A stretch of 63,186 nucleotides of DNA, filler included, from Psammoneis japonica (lineage: Eukaryota), in the NCBI GenBank assembly GCA_008632985.1. It is 3 parts of 3 records of this genome, joined end to end, with 100 filler letters (N's around TTAATTAATTAA, not from the genome) between each part and the next. Parts side by side here need not be neighbours in the genome. Positions count along the whole stretch, not along the records: positions 1 to 23,108 come from QPGO01000434.1; 2 more parts are not named here. One strand, 5' to 3'. The translations under genes were made by a program, and so were the position numbers. The notes under the pieces were generated by a model. The model was not told where the DNA came from, did not search any database, and was given only the letters and a program-made list of their open reading frames with translations. Positions 2,029-49,355 of this stretch are shown in pieces; position 1 is the stretch's first letter, and each line of letters opens with the position of its first letter.

Positions 2029-2063
2029 AGGACATGCTGCTTTTGTCGTTTGTCTTCAAGACT

Positions 2064-2293
2064 GGGGGAGACATCTTCGGAAGTGAGGAGACTGTCGAAA
2101 AAAGTTCTTGCACAGAATTTGTGCTAAAACAGTCTGTCAACCAGTGCAACTGGGGGTGTTTGGGACCTCTGGACAGACCCCACATGTTTTCTTGTGCACA
2201 CAAACAATTGTGCTGGGAAAAATGGGAAAACCCCCAAACATGCTGGCGACCAGACTGCCTTCGACGATCTCACTTCAAAAGACGCCCCCCCAA
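2064..2293 (+). repeat. Dispersed ~220-bp repeat, heavily mutated copy (partner at 42737-42944, minus strand)
   Basis: Co-linear alignment by eye with the reverse complement of 42737-42944. Differences are almost all TA->TG/CA, CG->TG/CA, a few AT->AC and short insertions. Confidence 0.85.
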
Positions 2294-5400: not shown

Positions 5401-5897
5401 TGGAAGTAAGAAAGGGAGTGGAGCTTTGGCGCGATGTATCATGTGCGACTCCAAGACACATTGGTATTGCTCTGGCTGTCGTCAATGGTATTGTTGCGAT
5501 AGTCCCCGTCCGCAAAGCGCTGGAGTCCCATACTTTCAAGATTCGTCAACGTACCGTGATGGGAAAAACAGGGATCGACCAATCGCCGGCGTGTACAATG
5601 CTTTATGCACTGTCACCCATCCATTGTGAACCAGGGATAGTAATATGTATTTGTATTTAGTGAATATATCATCTTTTTGACCACCGGCGTAATTGTAGTA
5701 CTTTGGAATATCATTTGTTGACAAGACGAGCGTTGTGTTGATGCTTTATCAATGAGAGCCGGTGTTTGTTTTGCACGTACAACTCGGTATGAAACCTACA
5801 GGGGCGTCGTTCGTGCCCACAGGAGCACGAACTTTTGCGTTCGTGCCCACACGCGCACGAAACTATCACGCGGGATAGTAGGCCTACGTTTCGACGT
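2425..5897 (+). mobile_element. Putative DNA transposon carrying YqaJ-like nuclease and piggyBac-like C-terminus
   Basis: Imperfect inverted ends (ACGCTGAAACGTA at ~2425 / TACGTTTCGACGT at ~5885). Palindromic subterminal motif GTTCGTGCCCACAGG(G/A)GCACGAA near both ends (~2510; ~5809 and a variant at ~5839). Ends are approximate and no TSD was established. Confidence 0.5.
2917..5629 (+). pseudogene. Disrupted, intron-containing transposon protein: YqaJ/lambda-exonuclease-like PD-(D/E)xK domain + piggyBac-like segment + Cys-rich zinc-binding tail
   Basis: Motifs SEWFQGRKHALT, LGHEME, DSPDF...VEMKAR, Q|CAHH; then YWNNTKHGSDVKTQ (cf. piggyBac YN..MGGVD..DQ); tail CIMC..KTHWYCSGC...C. In-frame GT-AG introns 3818-3900 and 4443-4524; several frameshifts/stops. 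Confidence 0.6.
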
Positions 5898-6012
5898 GAC
5901 CAAAGGGTTTCTGCGGTCGCGACACGACGATGATCTGTACCGCTATCACAAGAACCGCAACTCTAACGTACCTTCTGCTATAAGGCCGTCGCTCAACGAA
6001 TACAAAAGCGTA

Positions 6013-7983
6013 ATGGCAAATCGATACCCTAACATGCATCCGCCCTATCTGCCCTGGTCTGACAGAGAGCACTGTCATGCCACAATGCCTCCGCCCTCGC
6101 CTTTCTTCCCACCATGGATGCACGGATATGCCGCACCGCCAGATCCATTTACTGTTCAAGAGGGACAGCCACCATGGAGACCGCCGCCGCATCCCCTTTT
6201 TTGCCCACCACCTCGATTTGATTTGGAGAGGAAAATGAGCTCTAAACATAGGCTCTACTTCTATCACAACCGGTTTATTTCGAAGCAATCACCGTTCTGC
6301 CGGTCTCTTCTCGCTCAACCAAATGCAACCGAGGACAGCTTGCGTACTCTATCGCGTCAACTTCTACAAGATGGAATGTTCAACGTTTCTTTAGATGGCT
6401 TGTGTGAGGTTCGCGATCCATTGGCTCTTCATGATTATGCTCAGTATTACCAGTACGACCCTGTTCTCTGCCGTGCTTTGAAAATCGCTTCGGACAAGGA
6501 GCTATTGAAAAAGGACAGCTCTGCTCCCTTTAAAAATTCGCCATCGACAGGTTCAACGGGGGAGCCAACGCCACACACCCCTTTGCCTCAAAACAATTCC
6601 ATGGATTCTCCGCTTCCGTTGCGGCCCAAGCTCGCCTCTCCCACAGCGCCACCTCCCAAGCCAATTCGTGACTCAGATTTCTTATACTTCTCTGGCCATT
6701 TGCGAGTATCAAAATGGTGCAGGCTTACTTCAAAATGCGTCGACCAAGGCATCTCTGAGGATGACATAAAAGAAATATTCCAGACGCTCTACAAAAACAA
6801 ACTTTTCAACGTCAATGCTACAGGCCATTGTAGGATTATCCCAAACTTGCTTCCCCGCCTTGAGAAATTTACTACTCGGTTGGAAGACTCTCCCATGAAG
6901 CGGGCTTTGCAGTCGCATTTAGATGCCGCATCAGGGCTGAAGTCTCAACATGCAGCTGCTAAACGGTCGCGAGAACCACAGGAAGAGAGCGAGAGTATTG
7001 CCAAGCGAAAAAAGCCTTCTTCTGAACAAGCACTGGTACAGAGCAAAGTTTATAAAGACAACGCATATACTGCTTGCGTCAGTGCCGAGGTGAATCCAGG
7101 ACAGCATTCGCCCATGGAAACACCAGAGAAGGCCACGAGTGCGGTTCGTACGGGGAGTTCAACGGATTGCCAGAGCAAGGCTCGGAATGTAGATTGTCAG
7201 AAGACTCGACAGCGGTGCGAGAAACACAAGCCTAGCTCTTCCCGAGAATCTTCTGGTTGCGTCCACGCCAGCAAGAATGCAGAAAGGAAATCAGCCCCAG
7301 TTTCACCTGTGGTGGAGATGGCTGCCATTCGAACGAGCACCAGTACGGCAGGGGATTCGGTCATCGAGACTAAAGCAAGCAATAAGCAACAGCGAAATGC
7401 AGCGGTCGACGAGTACGAGGTGGACGCTGCCAATGAGAAGGTGCAGCAGTGCGAAAATTCCCAACACGCTCCGCTGAACCACAGTGGCTTGCAGCACTCT
7501 TATCTACAGGGTGCTCGTCATTTCCACGATTTGCAGGACTCCGGTAGACCTCGTCGCCGAAAACGAGGACGCCGGACAAGAAAACGGAGAAAGGTGGGTT
7601 CTAACAACAAACTCGACTCAAGCACCGACGTGGCTGCCAAGGGCCAAACCAACACCGTCATGGAGACAGATGCACCATTTGCCACTCCACGTAAGCCATA
7701 TCCGGAACGTCACAATGTGGATGCTGCTGTCGAGACGGAAATGATGACGAAACAAAAGCGAGCCCCCAATGATAGCAATATCGACAAAGCTGACGAGGCG
7801 TCGACGAGGGACTCAGCCTGTCTGCATTTTGGAGATAATGGACTGAATTGTGAATCACAAGACAACAACATGCAGAGACTCATGAAGGTTGCCAGAAAGC
7901 TCAACCTGCAGATAGATTGGACATCGGATGACCAATCGGAAGCCGCTGATGAGAGCTTCGGTTGTCACACTGTTTATTTGTAA
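6013..7983 (+). CDS. Uncharacterised protein (Pro-rich N-terminus, duplicated ~75-aa domain, low-complexity linker with basic NLS-like patch, conserved C-terminal motif)
   Basis: Long open frame (ORF 5752-7983). ATG 6013 (MANRYPN) chosen because it matches MANRIPN in the paralogue at 17645, and the upstream ORF part overlaps a TE end. Normal TA/Tyr content. Confidence 0.75.
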   Translation: MANRYPNMHPPYLPWSDREHCHATMPPPSPFFPPWMHGYAAPPDPFTVQEGQPPWRPPPHPLFCPPPRFDLERKMSSKHRLYFYHNRFISKQSPFCRSLLAQPNATEDSLRTLSRQLLQDGMFNVSLDGLCEVRDPLALHDYAQYYQYDPVLCRALKIASDKELLKKDSSAPFKNSPSTGSTGEPTPHTPLPQNNSMDSPLPLRPKLASPTAPPPKPIRDSDFLYFSGHLRVSKWCRLTSKCVDQGISEDDIKEIFQTLYKNKLFNVNATGHCRIIPNLLPRLEKFTTRLEDSPMKRALQSHLDAASGLKSQHAAAKRSREPQEESESIAKRKKPSSEQALVQSKVYKDNAYTACVSAEVNPGQHSPMETPEKATSAVRTGSSTDCQSKARNVDCQKTRQRCEKHKPSSSRESSGCVHASKNAERKSAPVSPVVEMAAIRTSTSTAGDSVIETKASNKQQRNAAVDEYEVDAANEKVQQCENSQHAPLNHSGLQHSYLQGARHFHDLQDSGRPRRRKRGRRTRKRRKVGSNNKLDSSTDVAAKGQTNTVMETDAPFATPRKPYPERHNVDAAVETEMMTKQKRAPNDSNIDKADEASTRDSACLHFGDNGLNCESQDNNMQRLMKVARKLNLQIDWTSDDQSEAADESFGCHTVYL

Positions 7984-10698: not shown

Positions 10699-13600
10699 AG
10701 TAAGACACCGGCGCAACGTTTCCTTAGAATTTGCCCCGACACCACCTCTATTTGCTTAGGGGCTGCTAGCTTGTTGGCTACATGGCACGGTGAATATATC
10801 GCATTAGTAAAGCGCCGCGTAACAATAAACAGCATCGTCCCAACAGATTTAGCTCTGTTATTTGTTGTTCCCAAAAACACTTGCATCACGCATCGATCCA
10901 CACCACCGCTTGTGTATTTTCAATTTCTGTCCTCGTCACATGCCAATCAAGTTTTGAACATAGCGAGCGTTCTCTGTTGTGTGTGAGTCACCTGATTGTT
11001 CGCTGCCCCACCAGCCTCAATGGACAGTCACTGCGGAGTGAGACTCACGATTTCCTTTGCAGGGTTTCAGAAACTTTGTGGTGGGCAAGGGCCTGATGTG
11101 TTGGGGAGGAGGAGTTTGCACTGTTGACAAACTCCCTCCTGCTGACAAGCATCCTCCTTTGAGGAGGTGGTGTGACAGCCTCCAGGACATTTCTTCTGAG
11201 GTTGTCAAGAGCTCGGTCTCTGAGTCTGCCGGCAAAGCCATGATGTGGATTGGCTGCTGGTCTTGCTGTCTTACATGGTTCAGAGATCTGGGGTGCATTT
11301 GCAGCACTTGGTTTCTGACAGCCAACACAGCACCCAGAAAACTGAACCTCTGTTGTGCCCCCCCTCTCAACAAACTTCCTGGGTGTCCCCCAGAGATGTT
11401 CAAGAATCTTGCAGAATTTCTGGAAGTGCTCTTGATGAGCCTGACCCCCTTCAGCTTCTTGTTCAATTTGTTTAAAATGGGGGCTGCTTTTTGACACACT
11501 GCAGCAGTTCTCAAGTGTGTTTCAACATCTGGGGGCACACTTCATGGTTCCTCTGGCAGTTGCCAAAGTTGCCACTTGAGTCTTCTGTGCTTCTTGTGGA
11601 ATGAGCAGCAAAGAGCAGCAAAATGAGCCAAACTCACCACACTTTGTTCCCCAGAGCAAGATTTGCTTCAAACAACTCCAAATTTGCCATGACACACAAA
11701 TCTTGATTGTCCAGATGCATGTCAAATCTGAGGACAATGGCAGTTTGCCAGCTCTGGCACTTTAAGATCAGCCACACATGATTTGATCATGTTGCATCTT
11801 GTGAGTGATGCACAAGAGCAAGTGCATGCATTGGGCCACAGCTGTCATCAAACAAAGACAAAACTGATTCCTCAAAGAAACAGGAGCAGATGAAGAGGAG
11901 GGGAGACAAGAAGATCCAACAATCAAACAGTCTTAAAGAGGAAATCCATTTGGCTGGCATTGCAAAGACAAAAGTTTCTGAGTTGAAAGGTCTCTGGTGA
12001 CAATGTGGGCTCATGGTGTCCAGCAAGAAAGCTTGTTTTTTGGAGATGCTGTGCAGCAGAAGATTTGTTTGACAGGATGAAAAAGTCAATGATGCAGTCC
12101 ATTGGTGAAAAAGTGCAGCAAAAGAGCTGCTCAAGTGGGGTCAACAAAAGCCATGACACTGGCTCATGACAGAAGCATGGGTGCCAAGGATGTCTGCTGG
12201 CAATGCCTGACATCTTCAGAGCCAGCTTTGGTTGTTTGAAGCATCATGTGAAGCATGAAAAAAATGCAAGACAATTGCCAAATCTAATGGAAGAACTTGC
12301 CCTTGCTCATGACAGATGCTTCTTCCCAAAGAAGGCACTCAGCTCCTTGGCAGACCACATTGGGAGGGCTTTTGGCAGAAGCCTCTTTAAAGTGGAACAT
12401 TGACAGAAAACAACAAGGTTCTGCAGTTCCAAAAGTGCCCCAATTTTCTCATGAGGAGTGCCAAGTGTTCTCTCTCTTGAAGCACTGCAGAGCACATTTG
12501 TCAAGAATCCAAAAGACACAGACACATGAGGACTTGGTGCAAACACCCAGGAAGAGCAGAGGCAAAAAGAAAAAGAGACAAAAGTGGGTGACAGATGCCC
12601 AAAACTCAAAGCATCTGAGCCAAACAAAACACATGCCACATGACATTTCACAGGACCCAAAAGAACTTCCTGCCTTGCTGCTTTTCCATGCATGATTTGG
12701 CCTGGGATGTGAAGGCAGCAGCAGCATGTTCTGTTTGGCAACTCCCACGCAGCTGGATGATTGACAAAAAATGCCACAACTTCAAGATTCATTGTGAACA
12801 ATGCAAGAACCTTCATGTTGTCTTTTTTTCATGCAGAGGGGTGTCAAGTGTAGAGTTTCAGGGTCAAAGATCTCCACGTTCGTCACACAAAATCTCAAGC
12901 ACATGGGGCACTGTGCCCAGAAATCTGTGCAAAAAATCTTCTCTTGGCAATCTAACAAGTTTCACAGTCTCAACAACTGACTCAGTCACAATGAAAGCAA
13001 TGGCCATTCTGTTCACTCACAGGGCAGGACAATGGACAAGTTGGTTGCACCAAGATTCAATGGGTCTGTCAACATGAAATGTTGTGGTGGGGGGACAAGT
13101 TCAACAAGCCACCCCAAACACTGTGCATGGTGTGCTGTGCACAATGCACAAAGGCAGTGGGGGTGGTGGTGCCAGCACCTGCAATGATGCATCAGCAAGT
13201 GTGGTGTCATCAAGGAGTGCAGATGGAACAGCAGGTGGGGGTTGGCAAAAGTGAGCAAAGCAAGACGGAAACAGCAGCAGCTTGTTGAGCTTCAGAGCAT
13301 GCTGTGATGGGCAAGCTCATTTGTGGGCACTGTGGGCAACTGGGCAATGTCATGGCTGAGACTCTTGGGGGCAATGGCATGGCTGACACTCTGAAGGCCC
13401 TGCAGCAGAGCAGTGTCACACCCTGGCCCAAAGCAAGCGGGGGTGGCTGGCTTCCAACCAAGGGGCCTTTTGGCTGGGGGGGGGGGGTTCGTCATGAGCA
13501 AGAAGACATCAAAGACTTGCAGATGTGGGACATTTGAGGGAGAAAGCAGAGCAGATGTCCCCAGGAGTGTGGAGTGGAAGATGCTGGCATGGCGGGGTTG

Positions 13601-17066: not shown

Positions 17067-17644
17067 GGCAGCAGCTGACAGCAGCACAACAAGAAGCTGG
17101 GGCCAGCCAGAGGAGCCAGGTGTGCCAACATCTGCGGCTGCAAGATTTTCAAGCAGCAAATGCAGCAAAAAGGTTCACAGTTTCAAGATGGACCACGTAA
17201 AAGTGTTGCAGCATGGGTTGGAAGAGATCGGATGGAAGGCATCATTTTTTGTTCATTGTTCGGCAACAGAATGTGCGATCGAGTGCAGGAACAAGAGAGA
17301 TGAAAGACGGCATGGCTTTGGTGTCATGCATGGGCACTTATGGCTTGTACGTTGAACGTACTGTACCGCTCCGAAATGAAGGTGATACAGGAACGAGTAA
17401 CATATTTAATGCATGCCCGTTTATTTTATATTCAAGTATGAATGTACCGGACTTCGAAACCAAAAACGCAACCTTCAAATCAAACTCGACTCCGTTCTGT
17501 CGTCTCGTTGAGATGCATTGATTGTGACAATGAAGCAGATGATCTTTTGTTCTTAAAACGCGTTCTATTTTGACGATGATACCGATGACGGCAAGCGAAA
17601 TAAGGTGCGAAAGGCGTCCCTCAGAAGCGCAGAACAGCAATGCT

Positions 17645-18544
17645 ATGGCAAATCGGATCCCCAACCTCTGGTTGTCCAACATCTCTCCGTCCGGGCCATC
17701 TCCCTCCCCTTCACAAGGGCTGCTCGGGCAGGCAATTGTGCCATCATATCCAATATCAGCTCGAGCGCAATTCATCCGACAGCGGCCATGGAGTCTACTG
17801 CCGCATCTACATGTGTCCCCACAACATGGTTTTGATTTTGAGAAGAAAGTGAGCTCTGCTCAAAGACTCTACTTTTATCCCAACCGTTACCTTTCGAAGC
17901 TATCACCGTTCTGTCAGTCTTTTCTCCCGAATGTAACCGAGGACTGGTTGCGTTCTCTAGCGCGTCAACTTCTCCAAGACGGAATGTTCAAGGAGTTGGA
18001 TGGCGAGTGCGAAGTTAACGATCCGGTTGCTCTTCATGCCTATGCTGATTGGTACAGCTACAACCCTGCTCTATGTCTCGTTCTAAAGATTGCTGCGGGA
18101 AAGGAGCTCGAGAAGCAGAATCAGAAGGGAGCGATGACGAACTGGACCGGTAACACAGGCAAAGTCGCTTCTGAGCAAAATTCTCAAGACAGAGCAATGT
18201 CTTTTCAGTCCACCAATGCTACCAACACTTCCGAACGCCGCACCGACACCATCATGAATAGTGCCGAGCATCAGAGTGCGGTTGCGACAGTTGAGAAGGA
18301 AATTCTGACGAAACAAAAGGAAACATGCAGTGATGCCACTATGGACAAAGATGGCGATGTGGTAACGGAGGGATTAACCAGTCGACAGCAGAAAAATGAG
18401 CTCGACTATAAGGAGTTACAAGACGACAACATGAGGAGACTAAAGGAACTTGCCAAAAAGCTCAACGTGCAGGTAGATTGGACGACCGATGATGACCCAG
18501 AAAGCCTTACTGAGAGCTGTTTGTGTCGCACTGTGTATTTGTAA
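17645..18544 (+). CDS. Uncharacterised protein, shorter paralogue of the 6013-7983 gene
   Basis: Shares RLYFY.NR..SK.SPFC.S.L...TED.LR.L.RQLLQDGMF...DG.CEV.DP.ALH.YA..Y.Y.P.LC..LKIA..KEL and C-terminal D.NM.RL...A.KLN.Q.DWT.DD...C.TVYL. Confidence 0.8.
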   Translation: MANRIPNLWLSNISPSGPSPSPSQGLLGQAIVPSYPISARAQFIRQRPWSLLPHLHVSPQHGFDFEKKVSSAQRLYFYPNRYLSKLSPFCQSFLPNVTEDWLRSLARQLLQDGMFKELDGECEVNDPVALHAYADWYSYNPALCLVLKIAAGKELEKQNQKGAMTNWTGNTGKVASEQNSQDRAMSFQSTNATNTSERRTDTIMNSAEHQSAVATVEKEILTKQKETCSDATMDKDGDVVTEGLTSRQQKNELDYKELQDDNMRRLKELAKKLNVQVDWTTDDDPESLTESCLCRTVYL

Positions 18545-19925: not shown

Positions 19926-21570
19926 TCACGCTGACGGCGTTTCAGGACTGACTATACTGAAATCACACGTATGAGGTACGGCAGAAGCAGTCAGGCGGGT
20001 CAGTGGCGCCTTGGTCGGGGGTGCAGCATCCACGCCGGGTGGGTGCTTCTGTGGCATGTTTTGTTGCCACCACATCAAGACAGCAACATTGAAATGGAGC
20101 ACCACCATGGCAGGCAACCATCACTGTGACAGCCATTGCTGTGACAAGAAGAAGTGTGAGATCCCTGTGATGCAAACCCCACATCAACAACCAAGGCAGT
20201 GAGACAGAGGGGGGTTTGGCTGCCAGCCGCGCGCACTTTGTGCGCAAAATGAGCTCGGCCACTCTGCTTCAGGGCTGATTGTGCTGAAATCAAATGCAGG
20301 ACCAGACACATGTGAAGCCAGTCATGTGTTGAAACAGTGTGCCAGCAGGTTCTGTGTGCCAAAAACTTCCAAGACTTCGAAGCTCCTCATGACCAAAGCC
20401 CCCCGAAGATGTGGAAGGTGGCTGGACCATCCTCGCCACAAGAAAGCAGCCAATCAAGGCAGTTGCCCAACTTGCATGCTTTGTCCTCTTTGTCATCTCC
20501 AGAGTTGTTGTTTTCTGTGACATTCCAACCTTTCTGATGATGCTTTGCTGGCTGGGCAGCCACGCTGAGTCTTGTCTCTTTGCGCTTTTGGACAAAAGCA
20601 CTTTGTGCTCTCAAGAACAGAGTTTTGTCACTCTCTTTGTTTTCACCAATGGATCCTTTGACACCCATCTCCTGGGCAGCTGTCCTTGCAAGACTTGCCC
20701 AAACTGGCTGAATTTGTGGCTTTCGTTTGTGGCCTGTTTCATCATCTCCTCCTTCGTCTCATCCTTGGCACACTGAATGATGCTGGCTTCCCAGGTGCCA
20801 CACCCCAAGGCGAAGATTCCCTTCTCTCAGTGTGTCATCCTCTGGCTTTCTTGTCATCAGCACTGGAACTGGCATTGCTTGAATCAGGTGAGCTCAAGGC
20901 ACGGCTGCTCTCACAATGCTTGTCTTCATCTTCAGATGTGTCGCCACAAACATCAGACCAAGAGCTCATGTCATTGAGGCACTGGCACAAGAAAGTCAGT
21001 TGCTCCCTGCACTTTCATTGTTGTTGTTGCCATTGTCCATGTCACATGGGCAAGGTGATTTGGAAGCACTGTGGTCCTTGTCCTTCTTGGCTCGATTCAA
21101 ATCATTGAGACCAGGAAACAACACAGACTTGGAGCTGGGCTGAGGGAAGCAGTCATCAAGGCATTGACTTGATTTTTCCTCCCAGAACATGTGCACTCAT
21201 TGTTGTTGGTGCTGCCCTCAGCACTGTGTGGATCAGGTGAGTTTTTTGTCTCACTGCTCTTGTCACTGCTGTTCTCATTGTCAGATGTGTTGTGGAGTTC
21301 AGAATGAGAAAGCTTGCCATCAAAATGACCATCTAATTTCTGGCTTGGACTCCAGAACTGCATCAAAAGTCTCTTCCTCCCATGGCATGATGCGACCTTT
21401 TTGTCATTGTTGCTGTTGCTGCACTCTTGCTCATGTTGAGCAACATATGATGTGGCAGACTTTTTGGGAAAAATTGCAGACAGGCAACTGCCTTTGCTGC
21501 TTTCTTCACAATCAATGGCTGGCTGGTGCTGGCCACCTCCAACAAACACAAACGCTCAACTCAGGAGTTT
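19926..21570. mobile_element. Decayed TE relic, TpA- and CpG-depleted
   Basis: Composition signature; abuts and appears to truncate the 5' end of the next gene. No family motif recognised. Confidence 0.5.
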
Positions 21571-23108: not shown

Positions 23109-23208
23109 NNNNNNNNNNNNNNNNNNNNNNNNNNNNNNNNNNNNNNNNNNNNTTAATTAATTAANNNNNNNNNNNNNNNNNNNNNNNNNNNNNNNNNNNN
23201 NNNNNNNN
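23109..23208. other. Artificial contig linker (N-run + TTAATTAATTAA + N-run)
   Basis: Six-frame stop spacer; identical structure at 46034-46133. Confidence 0.97.
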
Positions 23209-26200
23209 TCCTCCCCCTCTTCCGCAACGGTTCCATCCGCGCCCTCTACGACCAATCCCGTTCGATCCCTGCTCCCGACACATCCGACGAACCTCCTGAC
23301 TTTGACAACACATCCTACGCCCACTCCGCCCAAGTTGCCGCCAACGTCAATGACCTCCATGCCGCCTGCGCCCGGGCCACCTCCTCCCTCCCCATCGCCT
23401 CTCTCACCCCCGAACGCATGGAGCTTGTCAAGCAACTCCACCCGCCCCGCAAACACCCACCGCTTCCTTCCCCCCCATCCACCAGACACCACCGCTCTAC
23501 CTCCTCCCCCCTGCACTTCACCACCAACGACCTCCGCAAAGCCCTCGCTAAATGTCAACCAGGCAAAGCTCCCGGCACCTTTGCCGATTCCACCGACCTG
23601 TTCAAGGCCCACGCCCTCCACCGCCACTCCACCCCAACCTCCACCTCATGCCCCTGCCTGCTCACCTTCAAACATCTGCTTGACCTCATTCTTGCAGCAG
23701 ACATCCCCACATCCATCAAGCCCGCCTTTTCTTCCAACTGCTTCCTCGCTCTCCACAAAGACTCCTCCAACCTTTCCAAACTTCGCCCCATCGGCGTCGG
23801 AACTGCCCTTCGCAGAATCGTCGGCACCCTCATCATGTTCCTCTTTGCCGCCACCTTCGCTGCCAACCTCCTCCTCTCCGGCCAATTCGGAGTCGGCGTC
23901 AAAGGCGGTCTCGACCACCTGGTCGACACCACCTGTGCCAACATTGAGCAATTCTTTGACCCAGACTCCACTCCAACCAAGGCCCTCCTCCTCCTCGACT
24001 CATCAAATTGTTTCAATGAATGCTCCCGTGACGCTTGTCGCGACACCCTCGACAACTCTGACGAATGCCACCCCCTCATCCCTTTCTTCGACCTGCTCTG
24101 CCAAAACCCCAACACTTGCTGGTGCCGTGACCACCGCTTGCAATGGTCCTCCTTCTCTCAGCCCGAAGGATTTGCTCAAGGCTGCCCCCTCAGCCCTGCC
24201 TTCTCCTGCCTTGTTTTGGCTCATGCATTCCAACCCATCAACGACGACCTACATCGTCGACTCCCTCCCCGCTCCAAGTCTGCCACCTCTTCTCACATCA
24301 ACGACACCCACATCTTCCTTCCCTTCTCCCAGCTCCCCTGGTTCCTCAAGCGCCTTTCTACCTCTGGTCCCCAATTCGGCATCAAGCTCAACCCCTCCAA
24401 GACCCAAATTCTCACCTCCATCACCGGCTCCTCTCCCATCAACTGCCTTCCACCCTCCGACACTGCTGCACTGTCCGAGGCCCTAGCCTTCCTCAACCCT
24501 CACAACGATCCCCACATCACACCCGAAATCACCACCGGCACTCGCTTCCTCGGTCGGCCCATCGGCTCACCCGCTTTCGCCCTCGATTTCCTCTGCAATG
24601 AGGCCATTTCCTTTGCCACCGACCTTCATCGCCTCACCGTCCGGCTCACCGACAAACAAACACAGAGCACCCTCTTCCACAAGTGCTCACTCCCTTCCAT
24701 CACCCACCTGCTGTCTGTGGACGCATGCTGCAACCTTTTGCCCTCCGATGACTTTCCACCTCCCTTTCAGTGAGCATCCCCCTTCGTCGACAAAATCATT
24801 GGCCACTCCCTGCGATTCCTCACCTGCCTCACCCAATGCACAGACCCCCTTCCATCTGCCTCCAAACTCATTGCCACCCTGCCCGTCTCTTTGGGCGGCA
24901 TCAGATGTCGCGACATCTCCGCCGTCGCCATCCCTGCCCTCATCACCTCCCTCCTCTGCTCCATCCGCTGCACCAAACATGGCATCCCACTGACCGGTGG
25001 TGCCATCTTCCACCTTCCCTCAAGCCGCTCTTCTGCTCTTGGTTCATGGTCCAACCCCCGCTCCACCCTCTCCCTCTACCAAATCTTCCGCCACTGCGCT
25101 CCCACCCTTCTCAAGCTCGACTCCCCCTCTTTTACCTCCCTTTCGCACGCAGTCGAACACCACAACCTACGCGGTCTCTCACAGCGCCTCCACCTGCACC
25201 ATCACACACACCACACCCTCCCCTTAATCCTCGCCGATCCTTCCATCCAACCGACACTCCCATCCCTGCTGTCGCCCCTCACAAGCCTGTGCCTTCACTC
25301 CCCATCCCGCATCCCACCCTCCAATCGCCTTCTGCCCCATCTTTTCATGATCCTCCTCTTGCGCAAGCTCCGTCTCCCTGTCATCCCACCCAACCTCTCC
25401 CAACACAACTGCCCATGCGGTCACGCCCGCCCCGACCCATGCGGCGATCACGCCTTTGCTTGCTCCAAAATGCACAAAGGCCCCCTGTCCAACCACATCC
25501 GTGACACGGTCTGTGCAATCATCGAGACCCTTGGTCCTCCATGCGGCCTCTGCCGATCCCGCCAACAAGTCTGCCTTGACCCTGCCGGACTCCCACCCGA
25601 CCACCCTCTAAAACGCCCCGCCAACCCTCTAAAACGCCCCCCCAACCCCAACTCACCCCCGGCTCCACACCACCAGACGCCCCATCCACCCATCAATTCA
25701 CAGCAATTGACATCACCGTGCCACCCGCTCCCCCACCTCCTGCACCTGGTTTGCCTGTCCCTGAAAACCCACTTGACAAGGCTCACCTCAGCAGCACTCG
25801 GGACAAGCTCCTCGGCTGCTCTACATCCTCCGCCCACGGTTCTGACATCATCGACGCCATCAACCAAGCAGGCCTCTTCCTCCTCCCTTTCACCTTCGAT
25901 CACCTGGGAGGCATCGGACGCCACTTCCATCTTTTCTTTTTTGGCGCCTCCACCACTGCCTCCTCCTCCGTCCCCCCCCTCCCCCCAAACCGCCCTGGTC
26001 CCATCCATCCTCTTTCTCTAACTCTCAAGCATCCTTCTCTGCCTTCACCAACTCCCTTTTGGCTCCTTCCAACCTCCTCACCCAATCTAACGCGGCCTGG
26101 AAACAACTTTCCCCCGCCCACTTCAGCTCCTCCTGCCATGCTGCCACACCCCTGCTTTGGGCTTCCCAAACCCTCAGCCTCAACTTTGGCTTTGCTCTCT

Positions 26201-33169: not shown

Positions 33170-36100
33170 GTCAGGCTGCCAGAGTTGCAGCATTGCCGTG
33201 CTCTATGCAGGGTGCAAATCTCTGGGCACTCGTGGAGTTTCTAGAGACTGGGCACTCAGACAAGTCTCAGGTTGCAGAACCACCGCAGTGAAGGTCCGAC
33301 AATGTCCTCCCCTGTCCCTGGTCCTTCAAAGGCCGCTGCCCACTCCTCCTTCCCACTCAGAATTCCCATGTGCAAAACTTCACCCACCCCAAAAACTCCT
33401 CACTCATGTTCAAAACAACTCCCGCTCTGCAAAAAAGCTCTGCTCACACCCAGAAGGAGCATGCTTTGCTGCAGCACTTAAAAAATCACAACAAAACACA
33501 GCCAGCCCACACCCAGAAGCATGTTCAATGTGGTGGCAAGCATGAACAACTGTTGGTTGTGACCAGAGAGTGTCTCGCGCTGTGGGCCTGGCGAGGCGTG
33601 CAACAGCTGGGCCCAAGGAGGAGATGATGGAAATGCAAGCACAAGCAGAAAGCAAGCAACATTGTCATGACCAGCATGCCAGAGTTGAGGCCAGTGATGT
33701 GTTCCAATGCCAGTGGTGAGATCAAGCAACAAAAGACCATGTCAAGTTAAAGCTTCAACAGGGATGGCTCTTGTGCCAAAGGTTGTTTTGAAAGAGATTG
33801 ACAAGGAAAAGAGAGCTTCCTGCTAAAAGAGCAGCAGATGTCAAAATTGACTCAGCAGTTGACTTGGGGTTTGAGCAAAAGTGAGATGAGTGAACACTTT
33901 TTAGCAGCTCGTCAGGGTCGCTGCAGCGCCTCTTGGCTGCTCTCTGGCAGCCGTTTCTTGTTTTTTGTTTTTTGCTTGTGGCTTGTTGCATGGTCTCACA
34001 CTGTCAAGTTGCCAGAGTTGTTGCAGCAGCACGACAATGCCAGCTGTGTGGAGGAGTGCAGCATCTCTGGTGGGTGCTTGTGGAGTTTTTGGGAGCTTTG
34101 AACCAACAAGACAGCCTCTGGCTGCAAAGCTGTCATGTGGCAAAGATCTTGCAGCCAACGTCTTTTCCTGCCATGTCGCTTCAAAAACAGCTGCCCACTG
34201 ACTCCATCCACTCAGAACTCTGACATGCTGCAAAACTTCACGTGCCCCAAGAGCTTCTCGCTGACATTCAAAGTGACTCTCCTGCTCTGCAAAAGAGCTT
34301 TTCTCACAGTTTGCGCCAAGAAAATCTGCTCACACACAAGAGCTCACCTGCCCCAAAGCTCTGCACACAGCTGGAAAAAGCAGGCTTTTTGCCCACAACA
34401 CTCAAAGCCAAGGCTTCAGTCAGTGCCACATCCAGAAGTGCACTTTGTGCCTGCAGCACTCAAAACCAAGGCTTCTGTCAGCCCTGCAAGCACCCAGAGA
34501 TGTGCAGTGCTTTGTGCGGCAAACACAAGAGCAGCATTTTCTGGTTGTGACCAGAGTCTCTGATGCCTGCCTTGGGCAGAAGTCATGCAAACAGCTTGCT
34601 GGTCTGACCTGCTGATGAGCTTTCACTTGACTTGGCTGCTGCCATGCAAGTGGAGGTTAAAACTCTGTTCTCTTCATCAAGCCATTGAGCAAAACCGACC
34701 CCTCCAGCACTCTTGGCACAGCTGAAAACTTGCTCCAAAATTGGCTCACAACATGTGAATTTTTTGCTGAACACACAACAACTTGGCTTGTGCCCTGCAA
34801 GGGTGTCTTGCTGGGCTTTTGATCAAAATCTCATCTGTGGTGTCATTGCCTCTTTCTCATTTGGAAAACTTGGTTGTTGCTCTTGTTCAAAATTGAGATT
34901 TGCTCAATGAAAAACATGTGTTCTGGTTGTTGACCTTGCTCCTTCATTGTGAACAAATTGACTTTGACAATTCGCTGAATTGGCAAAGTGGGAGACCTGG
35001 CTTCATGAGAAAAGGCAGCTTGGCAGAGCTTTTGGGCCATGGTTGAGATTTGTCTTGAACTTGGCTGTCTTGCGTCTTGGTGTTCTTGGCTGTGCTGGCA
35101 CATTGCACCATGTTCCAATCTTTTGTGTTTCAATGAGAGTTGGTTTTTGTGATGGCTTTTCATTGCAAAACATGACAGCAATGTCCCTCCTGGCAGAAGA
35201 CAGCAGAGAACTTGTCAGTTTGGTGCATTTTCTTCAGCAAGAGTGGGTGCTGCAACACTGCTTTTTCTGCTCACCTGAGTGCAATGTTGCTGCACTTTAT
35301 TTCTTGTTTTTGTTTGTTTTTGTCAACTTGTCTGAGCTTTAAGAAACAAAAAAAGCATGGAAAAAAAGCATCAGTTTGTTGCTGTTTGCTGCAAGCTGCT
35401 TGCTCTCATGCCACAATTTTGTCCTCTTGACTTTCCTGTGGCTTTTCTGCATTGGTGTGTGCAGAGTCCTGGGTGTCATTGATGTGTTCCTGTCATGTTG
35501 TCATTGTTTGTGTGCTGCTTGGATTCATGCTGTGTTTTTGCATTGCTTTGTGTGAGAATTGCGCGCCTTTTTTCCATGGAGCCATGCCAGCTGTCCTGGC
35601 AATCATTGCCCACGTCCTTGGAAGCAGTCAGTTTTTGCAAAAAAAGCTTTTTGTCACACTCGCATTTGAAGTTTGGGGGTTTGTTTCAAGGTTGATCTTG
35701 TGGCTTGTGGCATTGTGGCCACACATGTCATGTTGTGCCCAACAGCAGCAGACTTGAACTTCCAAACTCCAGAGTGAAAGACCCCACAGCAGTGCCAGCC
35801 AACCTGACAACAGCAAGCTGAAGACTCTGGCTGTGTCTGTTGGTCCCCAGGCAACACCTTGAGAACTGCAGCTGGGCATTGCAAAGTTGATCTTGCAGCA
35901 TTGTGACTCCATGTCACCTTGTTCCCAACAGCAAAGAGTTGCTCACACCCAAAGGTTTGGTTGCCAAAGGATGGCATTTTGGATCCATGAGCAAAACTTC
36001 AAAAAGCAATGCATTGGGAGTGCCTGAAATGCAGAGAGTTGTTTTGCAGTGGCAAAATGGCTCAAGGAGAGAGGAGAAATTTGCAGCAGCATTTTTGAAA

Positions 36101-38850
36101 CAAGCTTCTTTTTGTTGGCAACACCAAAGAACTCTGTGACAAAAACAATGAGCCATCCTCCATTTCATCCTGATGCAAAGCTCATGCAAGAGCAGATCTC
36201 ATTGGAGGATTGGCTGAGGTGTGAGTTGGAAATGTGAAACTGGGCTTTGTTGGCTGGCTGCGTGCTGCACAAGAATTTTTAGAGGCTTGAAACCTTGCCA
36301 AGCTTTCCTGCTGCGAGTTGTCACAAGTGAGTCTTTGTGGCCAATCTCACCAATGATGCAGTTGTTGCAATGTGGCTTCAATTGTCCATGTTGACTTTTG
36401 CACAAAGCCAGCAAGCCAGTCGGCGCCAGCACTCAAACAAGCATGGCACACAAAAAGCCCTCTGCTGCAATTTTCTACAGCAAGAGACAAAGCTGGTGCA
36501 TTCTCACAGCAGCAACAAGGAAGAGCTGCACAGACAGCGGCCATGATTTTTGGCATTTGCCAGAAGAAATCTGCGGCCATCATGACCAAAATGGAGTGCT
36601 TGTTGTCAATCCGCAACTTCAAAGTGGCGCTGAATAAAGTGCAGATTCTTGACCCACAGCAGCAAAACCTGGGCCAATGTTGGGGCTTGTCAAAATTGTG
36701 AAAGCCAACACTGGATCATGGAAGGAAAGGACTCAAGCTTGCAGCTTTGTTGTCTGTCAAAAGGGAGCAATTCAATGAGAAGTTTGTTTTGAAAAGAGAG
36801 CATCTTTTCTTCATTGTTGTTGTCAGTCGGCTCACCATGCAGCAAGAATGGCATGGTGGGTTGCAACAGAGGGGCGCGCCATTGTCGCACACACAATCAA
36901 TCTTGGCCCTGGCCTCATTGAGCTGCTGAATGAAGCTGACCCATCTGATGCTTTTGGCACAGCCACAAACTTGGTTGTCCAAAATTGGCTCACAACATGT
37001 GCATTTTTCACTGTGCACACAATGACTTGTGAGACATGTCAAATTTTAAGGCAGCATGCCCTTGACCAGCAAAAATTGCTTGTGCTCCACAAGGGTGTCT
37101 TGAAGGGCTCTTCCTGCACTTTTTCTGTTCAAAACATGTGCAAGACATTTGGAGCTCTTTTTGTGCAGTCACTGGCTGACCTGCATCTGCAGCTGGGGCA
37201 AATTCTCATCTGTGCCACTGCCTTCCTCATCTGGAAAATGTGGTTGCTTGTGTTCAGAATTGAAATTTGCTCAATGAAAAGCCTGTGTTTTTGTTGAGTG
37301 CTCTTTCATTTTGAGCAAATCAACTTCAACAATTGCCCAAATTGGCAAAGTGGGATGAGACCAGACTCAAGGAAATTTGGTCTCACAGTGCTTGGGCTGT
37401 TGATCAGATTTGTTTTGAACTTGGCTGCCTTGCGTCTTGGCGATCTCTTGGCTGTGCTGGCACTGCATTGTGTTCCAATCTTTTGTGTTTCAACATTCCT
37501 GGCAGAAGACAGTGGAGAAGTTGTCAGTTTGTTGCATTTTCTTTGGCAAGTGTGGCACAATGCCTCCATTTTTGCTCGCCTGTGTGCACAATGTTGCAGC
37601 ACTTTGTTTCTTGTCTTTTTTTGTTTTTGTCAATTTGTGAAAGGAAAGTGCCAGTGTTTGTCATTGTTTGCTCCAAGCTGCTTGCTCCCATGTCACACTT
37701 CTGACCTCTTGCCTTTCCTGTGGCTTTTTTGACTTTGCTGGTGTGCGCCGAGTCCTGCGGGTGTTGTTGATGTCTTTTTCTGCAATGTTGTCATTGCTCG
37801 TGTGCTGCTGCTCTTGGGCACATCTTGTGTTTTTGCAGTTGTTGCAATGTGGCTTCAATTGTCCATGTTGGCCTTCGCACAAAGCCAACAAGCAAATTGG
37901 CGCCAGCACTTGAACAAGTGCGACACACAAAAAACCCTCTGTGCAATCTTCTGCAGCAAGAGACAAAGAAAAGAAGATGCATTTTCAGAGCAAGGGCAAG
38001 AAAGAGCTGTGCAAAGAGTGGAGACAATTTGGTGTTTGCCAGCAGAAATCTGCTGCTGTGGCCAAAATGGAGTGCAGTGTGCAAGCATGGACCATCAGCC
38101 CAGACAACTTGACACCCCAAAAAGTGTTTGCAGCGTGCTTGTTGTCAATCTGCAGCTTTAAAGTGGCATTGAATGAAGTGAAGATGGACTCACAACAGCA
38201 ATCTGAGTTGATGTTGGAATTGAGTTGCTGTTGGAATTTGTCAAAATTGTGCAAGCCAAGCCAAGCTGGGCAGAAGGAAAGGACCCAAGCTCACGGCTTT
38301 GCACACTGTCAAAAGGGGCTGGTTCGGTGAGAAGTTTGTTTTGAAGAGAGAGCCTCTTTTCATTGAACATCAAGTTGCAACAGAGGGGCACACCACATGC
38401 AAACAACAGATCTTGGTGCTGGCTGAGTTGTGTGGTGGTGCCCAATGCAACAAAGAGACAAAGAGCACAACAGAAAAAAAAAAACATGGAAAAGACCCCC
38501 ATGGCTGCTGAAAAAATTGACTGTCAAGAACCTCAAATGATGATGGCTTTGTTCTTGGCAACACTGGAAAATGAACCAGCATCAGAACACTGTTTGGAGT
38601 CACAGCTGCAGTGACTGCCTTGGCTTGCTTTTGAAAAATTTTGGCATCTGTGGAGAGTGCAAAACCACAGGCACAAAAAATTTGTTCCTCGCGTCAACGG
38701 ATCTTCTTCTTGTCAAGCACAAAGAACATGTTGCAGACATGCTGACTGAAAGCTTGGCATGAATTGTTGGTGTTTGCCAAATTGCTGAACCGCTGCATGC
38801 TGGATGCCGTGGCAACGCAATGTCCATCCTGCACCTTCTTGGTCGAGGTG
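33170..38850. mobile_element. Extremely decayed TE domain with internal tandem duplications
   Basis: Near-absence of TA and CG. Duplicated blocks ~33350-33570/34200-34560, ~34640-35560/36900-37830 and ~36355-36910/37835-38420. Confidence 0.65.
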
Positions 38851-42564: not shown

Positions 42565-42669
42565 GTTGCTTATTTCAGTCTAACTCAAAAGAGTCAATCG
42601 TAAGGACGGATTCTTTAGACAGAAAGGTATTGCTTTGGGTTATTACAAGAGGAAAAGAGGGCTATGTTT

Positions 42670-44170
42670 CAGCACATTGGCGTTTCAGGCGTCATCGTGA
42701 TTCGCCTCTGAAAAATGAGAAAGAAAAAGCCATAGATTGGGGGGCGTCTTTGGAAGTGAGATCGTCGAAGGCGGTCTGATCGCCAGTGCGTTTGGGGGTT
42801 TTCCCAGTACATTTTGTACGCGCAAGAAAACACGTAGGATCTGTCCAGAGGTCCCAAATACCCAATCGCACTGATTGATAGACTGTTTTAGTACAAATTC
42901 TACGTAACTTTCTTCGACAGTCTCACTTCCGAAGACGTCCCCCAAGATAGACCGCGCGAGCGAAATAAGAACGTCAATCCGTCCGTCCGCTCATTGTCGC
43001 GTCCGTCGAGCGTCGAGGCGAGCGCTGTCCCCATTCCCCCGACCGGCGAGACACGCGACACACGCAGACGTTTCACTGCCGCTTTTCTCGCTGGCAGTCC
43101 TTTACACATTGAGGATGAGTGAGCTCGCTTTATAATGCTTGCAACAGATGGCTGGAGAAGGCTTTACAAGCACAGCTGCTGCCTGGGTGGCAGGGTCCTC
43201 AGAGCGAGGGTGGGAGAGAGTGTGGTGCTGCGGGGGCAGCTGGCAGAGCACGTGCTCTCTCTCTCTTTCTGCCTGACGCTTTTGCACCTTGTTGTTGGTG
43301 TGCAGGAGAGCCTTCCTTGGCTCTTCATGAGAGTGACCCCAACAGGGCAGAGGCTGAGCTGCACGCAGGGCTCAAGCATCATGGCAGCAATTGCCCGCAT
43401 GTTTGGCGCACATGGCACAGGCAAGCGCAGCATTCCAGCACACAAAACAAGAGACACAGAGGTGTGCAGAGCAGCTCTTGCTTCTGGTGCCAGCAGCATG
43501 GGGCTCATCACAAACTGCTTTGAGCGACAACAAGAAAACGATGCTGTCAAGCTGAGCCCGCGCTGCTCTTGGGTTGAAGAAAATGGCTTGATTCTGGTGG
43601 GCAGCGCACAGGCCGGCCAGTCAGACGATGCTGTTCTTGTTTCTTGTGTGGATTGCTTCGCTTTGGCTCCTTTGGAGCAAGACTTGACTTTGGAGAGCAG
43701 ATCTCAAAAAACTTTCAAGTTTGGTGCAAAGCTCAAGAAGAAACTTGACGTTGGGGCAGAACTCTCGAGAAGTTTGCTGGTGCAAAAAACTTGACTCTTT
43801 GTTGGCGGTGTGGCACAGCCAGCCAACAGGAGCTCTCACAACGATGCTGCTCAGCTTTGTGTTGGTGTGGCTGGGAATGATGCTGTTGGGTCACCACAAG
43901 TGCCATGGCAAATGACCCATTTGATGACATCATGATGTTGTGTTTTTGGCATTCGGGACGCTGATGACAACAACCCCTCGCATCATTTCATGCAGACACA
44001 ACGAACACACGCACAGGCGCTCAGCAAAAGCGTGCAATTTCGTTTTTTTACAAAAATGCAATACGTTTTTGCAAAAAACAGAATTGTTCAGAATTGGAAC
44101 GAAAACACACATTTCAACCTTTATGCATGCGCATCACGCACACAACATCTCGCACTTCACTGTGCGATGA
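42670..44170. mobile_element. TE relic between divergent RDD and BTB genes; left end unmutated, interior TpA-depleted
   Basis: Contains the dispersed repeat shared with 2064-2293; TA essentially vanishes from ~43170 to ~44040. Confidence 0.55.
42737..42944 (-). repeat. Dispersed repeat, near-ancestral copy
   Basis: Retains 9 TA and ~14 CG dinucleotides relative to the 2064-2293 copy. Confidence 0.85.
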
Positions 44171-46033: not shown

Positions 46034-46133
46034 NNNNNNNNNNNNNNNNNNNNNNNNNNNNNNNNNNNNNNNNNNNNTTAATTAATTAANNNNNNNNNNN
46101 NNNNNNNNNNNNNNNNNNNNNNNNNNNNNNNNN
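46034..46133. other. Artificial contig linker
   Basis: N-run + TTAATTAATTAA + N-run. Confidence 0.97.
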
Positions 46134-47426
46134 GACTTTCGAGTGTAGATTGCTGTTTGGCGGCGGAGGAGGACATTTTTTCCAGGTCGGGAATGCAACC
46201 AAGGACACGCCACTTTGCTCTGTCATGCCATTGGTTGCAGGCAACATGAGCCGACGTAACTGTGACAGGTTCTCCGCAGGAAGACGACATGGAGGCTGTC
46301 TTCCCAGTCTTGTCAACGTGAATCATCAAACATTCAGGAACTCTTTAAGAGGATCGGAGACCCTGGCTGTGCACGCACTTCTGCACCACTCTCCTGCCAA
46401 AACACACTTGTCGTGCTTTCCCTTTGAGACATGCATTCCGCATGGATCGGCAGTGGGGTTGGCCCATGTGCAAGCATCCAGCATGAACGATTCCCACACA
46501 TCTTTGAAATTCCATCGCGGAACTCTTGCTGTTGTCTCACCGCGTTCCCCATTGACGCTTTCTAGGTTGACTGGAATCATCTCGCATTCCGGACCTGCAA
46601 AAGATTTGTGCAGGTTCTCCATCAGTTTGGTGTGGCGAGGGATTTGCGTTCCAAGATGGAAGGCACTGCCACAGTGTCTTTTGATGAACTCGGCGATCTT
46701 GTCGCACAGGTGAAGCGGTGCTCTGCAGTTGTCTAAGAGCTTGCACAGCTCTGCACAAGCACCGTTGAGGTTGCTGAGAGATGGCATGCGCGCAAAGGCG
46801 TCTTCGGATGGGCTGCGGTGCACCTCACCCAATCGGCTGTCTTCACTCCGCGAATCATCTTCGTCCAAGCTGTTTGATTCGTCAGGATTTGTAACTTCAG
46901 AGCCCTCCATTGTGACATCTGGCAGTGCGTCAAACGAGTCATCTGGTGACAAGCTGGCTTCGGAAGACAAGTCCAGGGACATGTCATGAATTTCCTCATG
47001 ATGGGATCGCGACCCAAGAGCGGAAATGTCATCATCAAACGGTGGTGACCATGGTTCATCGCTTCTGTCATTTTCGTTGTCAGTGGACCCAAGCCCAATG
47101 TTTGCCATGGACGCACCTTGTCTGGACCGCCTCAGCCATGGCTGTGACGCGTCATCTGATGAGGAGGAAATGTCGAGATCAACTGACCCACATCTGCGAG
47201 AGAATTTGTTGCTGGCGTTGGAAGATTTAGCCACAACCCTTGCTGACAACTCTGGCATTGGGCAGTTTGTGACTGCATCGCGACGTGACAAGTTGGGCAT
47301 CTCTTGAGCAAACAAAAAACACAGTGGGTCATGATGGAAATGGGTGAGCATCCGTTTGAAGGATCGTTTGCAACGGGGACATGCCACCACACCACCCCCA
47401 CCCTGCCAACCACCATTTCCTTCCAT
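46134..47426 (-). pseudogene. Plavaka/CACTA-like transposase, copy A (N-terminal half, cut by gap)
   Basis: N-terminal CPRC...H....C finger; LNGAcAELCKLLD; VPRWNF; IhVDKTG; EPV..TSA; W..LGcIPDLEKMSSSAA; homologous to 52886-56530. Confidence 0.7.
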
Positions 47427-47779
47427 TTGTCATTGCAGCAGGTTTGTGGGCTGCCCAAACACATGTGTGTTTGAATGGCAGCACCAGCTCAGTTCTTGAA
47501 AAGTGAAACAGTTTGGGCGGCAAGGAAGGAAAACACGACATGAATTGGCGCGAAAACATGGGTGCATTGTGTTCTTCCCATCAATGAAAACATTGACAGG
47601 TGAGAATGAATCGAACGCGTTGCGATGATTGATGACTTTGAGCATGAACAACTGACTGCAAATGTTGTTTTTCTGCGGAAAGGAAAAAATGAGTTGTGAC
47701 GTGATGAGCCGTGATGCGTTGCAGTGAGAAGTCCAGGAGGGGCGCACCCACACCCACTGCAGCACCAGACACAAACGTT

Positions 47780-49202: not shown

Positions 49203-49355
49203 AAGATTTGGTTGATTCTCAATTGTGTTGCATTTGAGAAAAAGGAATCATTGATGGTGACTGTGAGATTTTTGGTGTTAAAGAGAGGTTTGAAAATTTT
49301 CCAACGGCGAAAACAACTGGGACACAAGGCATGGAGCCACCCACAATTGGCAACA

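Follow-up and report, generated by a model that had tools for sequence, protein, structure and literature searches.

Hypermutation directed at TpA dinucleotides has been described in the rhizarian chlorarachniophyte Bigelowiella natans, where it affects integrated DNA of nucleocytoplasmic large DNA viruses (NCLDVs) and of virophages (Mettrop et al., 2026; bioRxiv 10.64898/2026.01.13.699255). According to the main text of this preprint, 231 of the 302 nuclear point mutations found in 15 mutation-accumulation lines were located in two integrated viral regions, and 230 of these 231 were A>G/T>C changes, all at TpA, occurring at about 6e-7 per site per generation, for which the authors propose an ADAT2-like DNA adenine deaminase. 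Here, we analyze a stretch of 63,186 nucleotides (the window) from the diatom Psammoneis japonica (assembly GCA_008632985.1), which contains two copies, A and B, of one family of miniature inverted-repeat transposable elements (MITEs), and in which copy A appears to have lost nearly all of its TA and about half of its CG dinucleotides to TG and CA. As in the main text on B. natans, TpA is converted to TpG/CpA in confined regions and the rest of the genome looks ordinary; however, the changes in B. natans are almost exclusively A>G/T>C and, although the TA component in the diatom is alike, loss of CpG comes in addition. Also, the B. natans mutations described there arose de novo in a rhizarian, whereas in the diatom, a stramenopile, the process is known from the decay that it left in the sequence.

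The window consists of three contigs joined by two linkers of 100 nt (23109-23208 and 46034-46133; each made of N44, a 12-nt all-frame stop word and N44), so that distances and synteny across the linkers are without meaning. Copy A (2064-2293, plus strand) and copy B (42737-42944, minus strand) are located on separate contigs and represent two separate insertions of one 207-nt MITE family, with the following features:

2063-2292, plus strand: MITE copy A, decayed ('after'), as delimited by alignment to B; decayed inverted ends; 1 TA, 6 CG
42738-42944, minus strand: MITE copy B, near-consensus ('before'); 207 nt; 9 TA, 14 CG; family ends at 42737/8 and 42944/5
2059-2062 (left) and 2293-2296 (right), unstranded: target-site duplication of A, AGAC, read in the flanks
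42734-42737 and 42945-42948, unstranded: target-site duplication of B, AGAT, read in the flanks

With its terminal inverted repeats, target-site duplication, length of 207 nt, lack of coding sequence and high copy number, the element is a MITE, that is, a non-autonomous DNA transposon. The inverted ends of copy B agree at 29 of 33 terminal nt, whereas those of copy A have decayed, and the predicted fold of copy B is a long hairpin (z = -6.9). Both copies are bordered by a 4-bp target duplication, the words of which differ (AGAC and AGAT), and flanks vary between copies of the family, as is seen from loose contig ends. Copy B is surrounded by genes; copy A is found in a TA-poor patch (about 1400-2300), at its right edge. 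A sensitive blastn search of the window with B detected A and B as the sole copies, and a 19-nt core of the element, when searched against metagenomes, gave 2 contigs, both chance matches without further similarity.

When A and B were aligned with a transition-aware global aligner, with which MAFFT agreed, 182 of the 208 aligned columns were identical, and 24 of the 26 substitutions were transitions; in addition, A contains 8 insertions (22 nt in total) and no deletion. An earlier note, made from the sequence alone, had reported that 8 of 9 TA and about 8 of 14 CG were lost, and both counts proved correct. Copy A retains a single TA (CTAA at 2125-2128), the other 8 having become TG (five) or CA (three), and it retains 6 CG, the missing 8 having become CA (six) or TG (two). 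The four AT>AC changes (2141, 2150, 2178 and 2250) and the short duplications in A (GAG following GTGAG, and 9 nt that repeat the GGGAAAA stretch) were likewise recovered, but the remark that almost no other substitutions occur was slightly generous, as 6 of the 26 (2065, 2069, 2100, 2241, 2242 and 2277) fall outside these three classes. The 46 TA/CG positions of B received 16 of the 26 substitutions and the other 162 positions 10 (Fisher p = 3e-6). Compared with non-target sites, the pair gives rates per site that are about 17- to 28-fold higher for TA and 6- to 10-fold higher for CG, rough estimates with wide error bars. Several of the insertions in copy A are short tandem duplications, and the family displays one 1-nt deletion variant only.

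In order to polarize these changes, contigs of the same organism's sequencing run were placed on 42600-43100 at a likeness to B of at least 80%, and a depth-weighted majority was determined. Word depth in the MITE bins ranged from 4,200 to 30,800 when compared to 52-56 in the unique flanks (80-590x), indicating hundreds of family copies. Among 298 family pieces, 116 were at least 99% like B, 60 were in the class of 95-99%, 65 in that of 90-95% and 57 below 90%. At the 26 sites where A and B differ, the family majority carries the letter of B at 24 and that of A at 2, namely 42879 (T>C, 99%) and 42822 (G>A, 100%). The family consensus therefore does not match the copy rich in TG and CA, and these data support the before/after order that had been suggested for the pair, with A as the derived copy and B as almost the master sequence of the family. 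Copy B has private changes relative to the family at 42812, 42822 and 42879, the last of which created a TA and the second a CG; in these private gains, ordinary transitions in a genic domain run opposite to the hypermutation. After polarization, 7 of the 8 TA and 7 of the 13 CG that were ancestral are lost in A; T>C/A>G changes (7 at TA, 4 at AT) make up about half of its substitutions and C>T/G>A changes at CpG roughly one third.

The family itself varies at the same kinds of sites. Minority variants, present at 5-33% of depth, lie on TA in 9 cases (three T>C, six A>G), on CG in 4 and elsewhere in 3, so that 9 of 18 TA positions, 4 of 28 CG positions and 3 of 161 other positions are variable (TA versus CG, p = 0.017; TA versus the rest, p = 2e-8). 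At three TA sites (42808/9, 42817/8 and 42859/60) both T>C and A>G variants occur, which identifies TA as ancestral, since only TA yields both in single steps. The claim that TpA is hit at least as hard as CpG, which does not reach significance in the pair (Fisher p = 0.17), is backed by these family variants and by the base composition of the window.

Over the whole window, the observed/expected ratio (o/e) amounts to 0.31 for TA, 0.70 for CG, 1.43 for TG and 1.37 for CA. The distribution in 500-nt bins (n = 124) is bimodal, with a TA o/e below 0.15 in 59 bins and of at least 0.4 in 47, and TA and CG o/e are correlated across bins (Spearman 0.76). Of the 59 TA-poor bins, 19 have a CG o/e below 0.35 and 40 one of at least 0.35, and none of the 47 TA-normal bins has a CG o/e below 0.6. 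Thus, TA loss happens without CG loss but CG loss never without TA loss, and loss of CpG follows more slowly. The depleted domains are as follows (values are o/e unless stated otherwise; all unstranded except the retroelement remnant):

1400-2300: TA-poor patch containing copy A; 0-3 TA per 100 nt
11001-13500: strongly depleted domain; TA 0.05, CG 0.08, TG/CA 1.7-1.8; open reading frames (ORFs) without Pfam family
20001-21500: strongly depleted domain; TA 0.02, CG 0.23
23209-26000, plus strand: TA-poor retroelement remnant; TA 0.13, CG 0.84; RVT_1 match with E = 2.7e-6, below the Pfam cut-off
33501-38500: strongly depleted domain with diverged internal repeats; TA 0.03, CG 0.17
43150-44000: sharp TA-free island, 200 nt from copy B; TA 0.02, CG 0.38
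46134-63186: third contig, entire; TA 0.06, CG 0.61

Domain edges can be sharp, as no TA is present over 43200-43999 in contrast to 4-8 TA per 100 nt alongside. The G+C content is nearly constant (0.478-0.489 in depleted and 0.475 in normal domains), and TG about equals CA in five of the six depleted domains, so that there is no strand bias in those. In contrast to the other depleted domains, the retroelement remnant at 23209-26000 is strand-asymmetric (A 0.19, C 0.45, G 0.14, T 0.22; 291 CA versus 130 TG), which may reflect a strand-specific variant of the process, with a cDNA strand as its target, for example, or nothing more than low complexity rich in C. Inside 34700-38400, in a domain almost without TA or CG, repeats occur that are 68-88% alike at offsets of 1.5-2.4 kb, and these provide additional natural replicates of the decay. 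In six repeat pairs that are located within TA-poor domains or next to them, CA<->TG exchanges account for 29 of 66 double mismatches at adjacent positions, when compared to 0 of 17 in a genic paralogue pair; such doubles indicate decay in place, one copy having turned an ancestral TA or CG into TG and the other copy the same step into CA. The long-term signature reported in the main text on B. natans is similar, with a depletion of TpA and an excess of CpA+TpG in clusters that are gene-poor and rich in reverse transcriptases and transposases. However, depletion is deeper in the diatom, with a TA o/e of 0.02-0.13 over 59 of 124 bins, when compared to the values given there, a Rho of 0.45 for the NCLDV region and, over about 95 Mb, 124 clusters.

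The influence of neighbouring bases was studied by comparing tetranucleotide frequencies between depleted (26.9 kb) and normal (22.8 kb) domains. Overall, TA in depleted domains is at 0.08 of its frequency in normal domains, and the depleted/normal ratios for the individual contexts are:

TTAA: 0.82
CTAA/TTAG: 0.20
GTAA/TTAC: 0.088
CTAC/GTAG: 0.085
ATAA/TTAT: 0.044
CTAG: 0.042
ATAT: 0.013
GTAC: 0.011
ATAG/CTAT: 0.007
ATAC/GTAT: 0.006

TTAA is spared, while the other NTAN words are reduced 5- to 170-fold, and 29 of the 86 TA remaining in depleted domains are TTAA. Survival per strand, fitted by the 5' neighbour of T, is 0.062 for A, 0.137 for G, 0.261 for C and 0.873 for T. The motif thus is V-T-A on the T side or, equivalently, T-A-B on the A side, with a 3' order of T>C>G>>A. 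Copy A obeys this rule, its sole surviving TA being CTAA and none of its changes requiring a T preceded by T; also, variation in the family at a TTAG/CTAA site is limited to the strand on which T is preceded by C. This rule is seen in the diatom, and the words 'trinucleotide', 'CpG' and 'diatom' do not occur in the main text of the B. natans preprint. Loss of CpG depends on neighbours too, with depleted/normal ratios of 0.27 for TCGA and 0.94 for GCGC; the spared CG palindrome begins with G and the spared TA palindrome (TTAA) with T. The proposal that ApT is a secondary target has weak support and has to be refined. ATC>ACC accounts for three of the four events, no variant of this type attains 5% in the family, and ATC/GAT is the next most depleted trinucleotide in depleted domains after the words with TA and CG. 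Judged from this context, the ApT events are probably due to the same activity as TA loss at a poorer site, given that on the A side the change G-A-T>G-G-T keeps the favoured 3' T.

A coding sequence provides a replicate of the decay:

60219-61718, minus strand: open frame of 500 codons without tyrosine; hypermutated gene copy, function unassigned; 217 of 362 residues identical to P0121

P0121, which contains 21 Tyr, is the sole close relative of this Tyr-free ORF among 5.8 billion clusters. Where 19 Tyr of P0121 are aligned, the Tyr-free ORF has Cys (9), His (5), Phe (3), Arg (1) and Ile (1), with TGY codons in the nine and CAY codons in the five first-named cases. The 33 other family members in the alignment contain 1.2-5.2% Tyr, and Tyr163 of the family alignment, which is nearly invariant, is Cys in the Tyr-free ORF. 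Similarly, the Tyr content of six further long ORFs of depleted domains is 0-0.4% versus 2.0-3.7% in four genic ORFs. On the third contig, 4 ORFs of at least 300 codons were observed versus 0.30 expected from a second-order Markov model, long ORFs are plentiful on both strands, and stops in the six frames comprise 801 TGA, 67 TAA and 29 TAG; as the process cannot produce TAA or TAG, ruined genes remain open frames. The P0121 family has 74 representatives (clusters). In a Pfam scan of P0121 and 15 longer members, no domain was found in P0121 or in 13 of the others, and 2 contained unrelated domains outside the matched part. An AlphaFold model for the family (pLDDT 75.5) gave no Foldseek match in PDB or BFVD at E <=0.001, and its best VIA-align Z was 4.0; this lack of a match is no evidence of a new fold. 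A single-protein search of viral_contigs revealed no relatives of the family.

Recognizable genes are found in the TA-normal domains, to which all seven non-transposon Pfam matches belong: CobW, nitroreductase, fatty-acid desaturase, Got1, ricin-type lectin, RDD and BTB, those for the desaturase and the lectin lying below the cut-off. In depleted-domain ORFs no Pfam family was detected at E <=0.001 except for the RVT_1 match in 23209-26000, which is below the Pfam threshold, and on the third contig none was detected at E <=0.001 in 63 ORFs of at least 110 codons. Ten ORFs of TA-normal domains, eight of them Pfam-matched and two long without match, were used for a test of codon phases. Their TA o/e was 0.50, 0.53 and 0.58 in phases 1-2, 2-3 and 3-1, respectively, with CG at 0.9-1.1, and genic domains outside these ORFs had a TA o/e of 0.63 and a CG o/e of 0.98. 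A genome-wide bias combined with selection at the protein level would empty the synonymous phases; as these retain TA, and NTA codons are used normally in genic ORFs, the loss is regional. All named homologues of CobW and of Got1 are from diatoms, with identities of at most 81% overall (70-75% for named matches) for CobW and of at most 71% for Got1. An atlas-based assignment likewise points to eukaryotic algae, and the dinoflagellate spliced-leader motif gave 0 matches in the window. Also, a paralogous gene family of unassigned function is present at 1902-2051, 5722-7980 and 17543-18541. With the 753-aa paralogue as query, tblastn found only a motif of 33-42 residues at 1902-2051, beside copy A, which stops about 35 nt before this copy at a GTGAGC resembling a splice donor, and from this arrangement copy A may lie inside an intron or in a broken paralogue.

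Several other known systems share features with the diatom pattern. As in fungal repeat-induced point mutation (RIP), repeated or foreign DNA suffers transition hypermutation, genes are spared and compositionally distinct domains result. However, the direction is opposite, because RIP makes TpA from CpA/TpG by C>T changes and lowers G+C, whereas in the diatom TpA is destroyed and G+C stays at 0.48-0.49 versus 0.475. Also unlike RIP, hundreds of near-identical MITE copies are unmutated (116 of the 298 pieces at least 99% like B), which suggests that simple duplication is no trigger, at least at 207 nt, a size that may lie below a length threshold. Deamination of 5-methylcytosine, known from vertebrates and methylated repeats, similarly converts CG to TG/CA in repeat-rich, gene-poor DNA, and in the diatom methylomes covered by PMC5124317 methylation is predominantly CpG and transposons are CpG-methylated. 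Such deamination explains the CpG half only, as TA disappears faster than CG and, in 40 of the 59 TA-poor bins, does so without loss of CG. Animal ADAR and APOBEC editing produces transition clusters of an enzymatic type with neighbour preferences, and the 5' U preference of ADAR stated in the Discussion of the B. natans preprint (bioRxiv 10.64898/2026.01.13.699255) corresponds to the 5' T in the diatom. In contrast to ADAR, the 3' order in the diatom is T>C>G>>A, TAT and TAC being most and TAA least depleted, and, unlike the retroelements and viruses targeted by ADAR/APOBEC, the DNA affected includes a cut-and-paste DNA element with its flanking DNA on both strands equally. The targets in the main text on B. 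natans are integrated viral DNA, whereas those in the diatom include a MITE copy.

From the sequence evidence we consider it likely, with good confidence, that a regional, context-specific transition process rewrote copy A in place by turning TA and CG into TG/CA. Its main component is T:A>C:G at TpA, acting on the T of 5'-V-T-A-3' or, equivalently, on the A of 5'-T-A-B-3' and being blocked by a 5' T, with a weaker echo of the same motif at A-T-C, and a second component is C:G>T:A at CpG. Both push YpR steps to TG/CA at a roughly constant G+C content. Genic domains, including synonymous and non-coding sites, are spared, and elsewhere nearly all TA, and with it Tyr codons and TAA/TAG stops, has been removed. 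The roughly 20-fold neighbour effect (-ln survival 2.79 versus 0.14) together with the kilobase-sharp domains points to an enzyme rather than to spontaneous damage, and the same two features suggest that silenced or foreign DNA would be the target of this enzyme. The most likely candidate is the type of enzyme proposed for B. natans, a polynucleotide adenine deaminase (A>I, read as G), which we nevertheless rate somewhat short of an even chance. Loss of CpG would most simply be due to 5-methylcytosine deamination in methylated repeats, and a dual A/C deaminase is possible as well.

Several observations weigh against this reading or limit it. Six of the 26 substitutions and all 8 insertions match no target class, and the pair by itself shows no significant difference between TA and CG loss (p = 0.17). 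The fit of the multiplicative strand model is only rough (X2 = 18.9, 6 df), with 14 CTAC/GTAG observed and 5.9 fitted. Copies like B are favoured when contigs are placed on B at a likeness of at least 80%, and young identical ones gain from depth weighting; when distinct contigs are counted, the decayed state is commoner at some sites, such as 42809, where G is present in 24 of about 32 covering contigs, although independent decay of single copies beside collapsed young identical copies would give just such an excess. Hints of a foreign origin of the depleted DNA are confined to the sub-threshold reverse-transcriptase match and the MITE. As to the enzyme, ADAR favours a 3' G and the natural substrates of ADAT include UAA, so that the 3' order of T>C>G>>A is unlike that of ADAR and presents no obvious match to ADAT either.

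Among the rival explanations, one concerns the enzyme rather than the process. T>C at V-T-A and A-T-C describes the events equally well, and in silenced DNA a TET/JBP-type dioxygenase could oxidize thymine at T-A and T-C to 5-hydroxymethyl- or 5-formyluracil, which would mispair with G and give T>C. In dinoflagellates, hydroxymethyluracil occurs preferentially at TpA and TpC; 5-formyluracil, for its part, mispairs with G. On the other hand, among the matches listed, no report of hydroxymethyluracil in diatoms was apparent from titles and abstracts, the window bears no information on the enzyme, and the sole experimental precedent, B. natans, is read in its authors' main text as A-deamination; such thymine-side chemistry seems to us unlikely, though less so than any of the following alternatives. 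Ordinary neutral decay with age, in which the bias is genome-wide, selection maintains TA and CG in genes and B is merely young, would do without regional targeting and would agree with the non-target changes in A (6 substitutions and 8 insertions), which show that this copy is not brand new, and with the continuum of family identity classes (116, 60, 65 and 57 pieces). We regard this as quite improbable, because the synonymous-rich phases (0.53, 0.58) and non-ORF genic sequence (0.63) are no poorer in TA than phase 1-2 (0.50), NTA codons are used normally, domain edges are sharp and the TA bins are bimodal.

It is also very improbable, slightly more so than neutral decay, that modified TA and CG in the depleted stretches were misread by the base-caller as TG/CA. 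Systematic errors at modified-base motifs do occur in the consensus of nanopore assemblies, CA<->TG doubles would likewise arise if one site were called TG or CA at random, and the library type of the two sequencing runs is unrecorded. However, the run contigs average about 214 nt, with a word depth of 52-56 in unique flanks, and resemble accurate short reads, and one run contig of 891 nt (depth 52), placed on 42739-42863 (minus strand), has 14 differences, exactly the A/B count there. Furthermore, near-complete conversion exceeds usual base-calling error, copy A also carries its 8 insertions, the differences between the Tyr-free ORF and P0121 (145 of 362 residues) extend well beyond TA/CG sites, and TpA mutations of like kind are real in the Illumina data of the B. 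natans main text. Reversed polarity, with A keeping ancestral TG/CA and the lineage of B having gained TA (by RIP-like C>T at CpA) and CG, is a thought invited by the two truly private gains of B (TA at 42879, CG at 42822) and by the fact that two sequences alone cannot be polarized. As B shares the letter of the family majority at 24 of the 26 sites, T>C as well as A>G variants are seen at individual TA sites, and 7 TA and 7 CG would have had to be gained where TA is under-represented everywhere, we give this the least credence of all, together with the equally implausible view that the depleted domains owe their composition to foreign DNA that arrived TA-poor or to selection against TA/CG. 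The latter would be in line with the lack of recognizable host genes in these domains, but a copy of a resident, TA-bearing MITE family took on the local composition, repeats within domains differ by CA<->TG doubles, and the conserved Tyr163 is Cys in the Tyr-free ORF.

No account of TpA-removing hypermutation in diatoms was found in the full-text literature, subscription journals being outside its coverage; what was found on the theme comprises RIP, which has the opposite direction, diatom methylomes without TpA content and the single B. natans preprint. What is new concerns the lineage, how deep the effect goes, its coupling to the loss of CpG, the neighbour rule and the open frames without Tyr. 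For annotation, the consequences are practical: DNA without TA has few stops and gives long false ORFs that are a trap for gene callers, encoded proteins lack Tyr, and homology searches fail.

Returning to the presumably enzymatic rewriting of copy A, the footprint in this diatom, polarized by a natural pair and a family of hundreds of copies, means that TpA hypermutation is no one-species curiosity. Diatoms may share a DNA-editing defence of the Bigelowiella type, inherited across SAR lineages or convergent, in which an enzyme would convert A to G at T-A-B in silenced or invading DNA until TpA is gone, so that a large share of the nuclear genome would have been rewritten; we put this forward as a possibility to which we assign somewhat less than an even chance. 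The neighbour rule is a testable fingerprint for candidate deaminases or thymine-modifying enzymes and, if such a defence is indeed shared, the enzyme could be traced by the TTAA exemption together with the T>C>G>>A order. A process that erases TpA may thus be a widespread eukaryotic genome defence with a sign opposite to that of fungal RIP.

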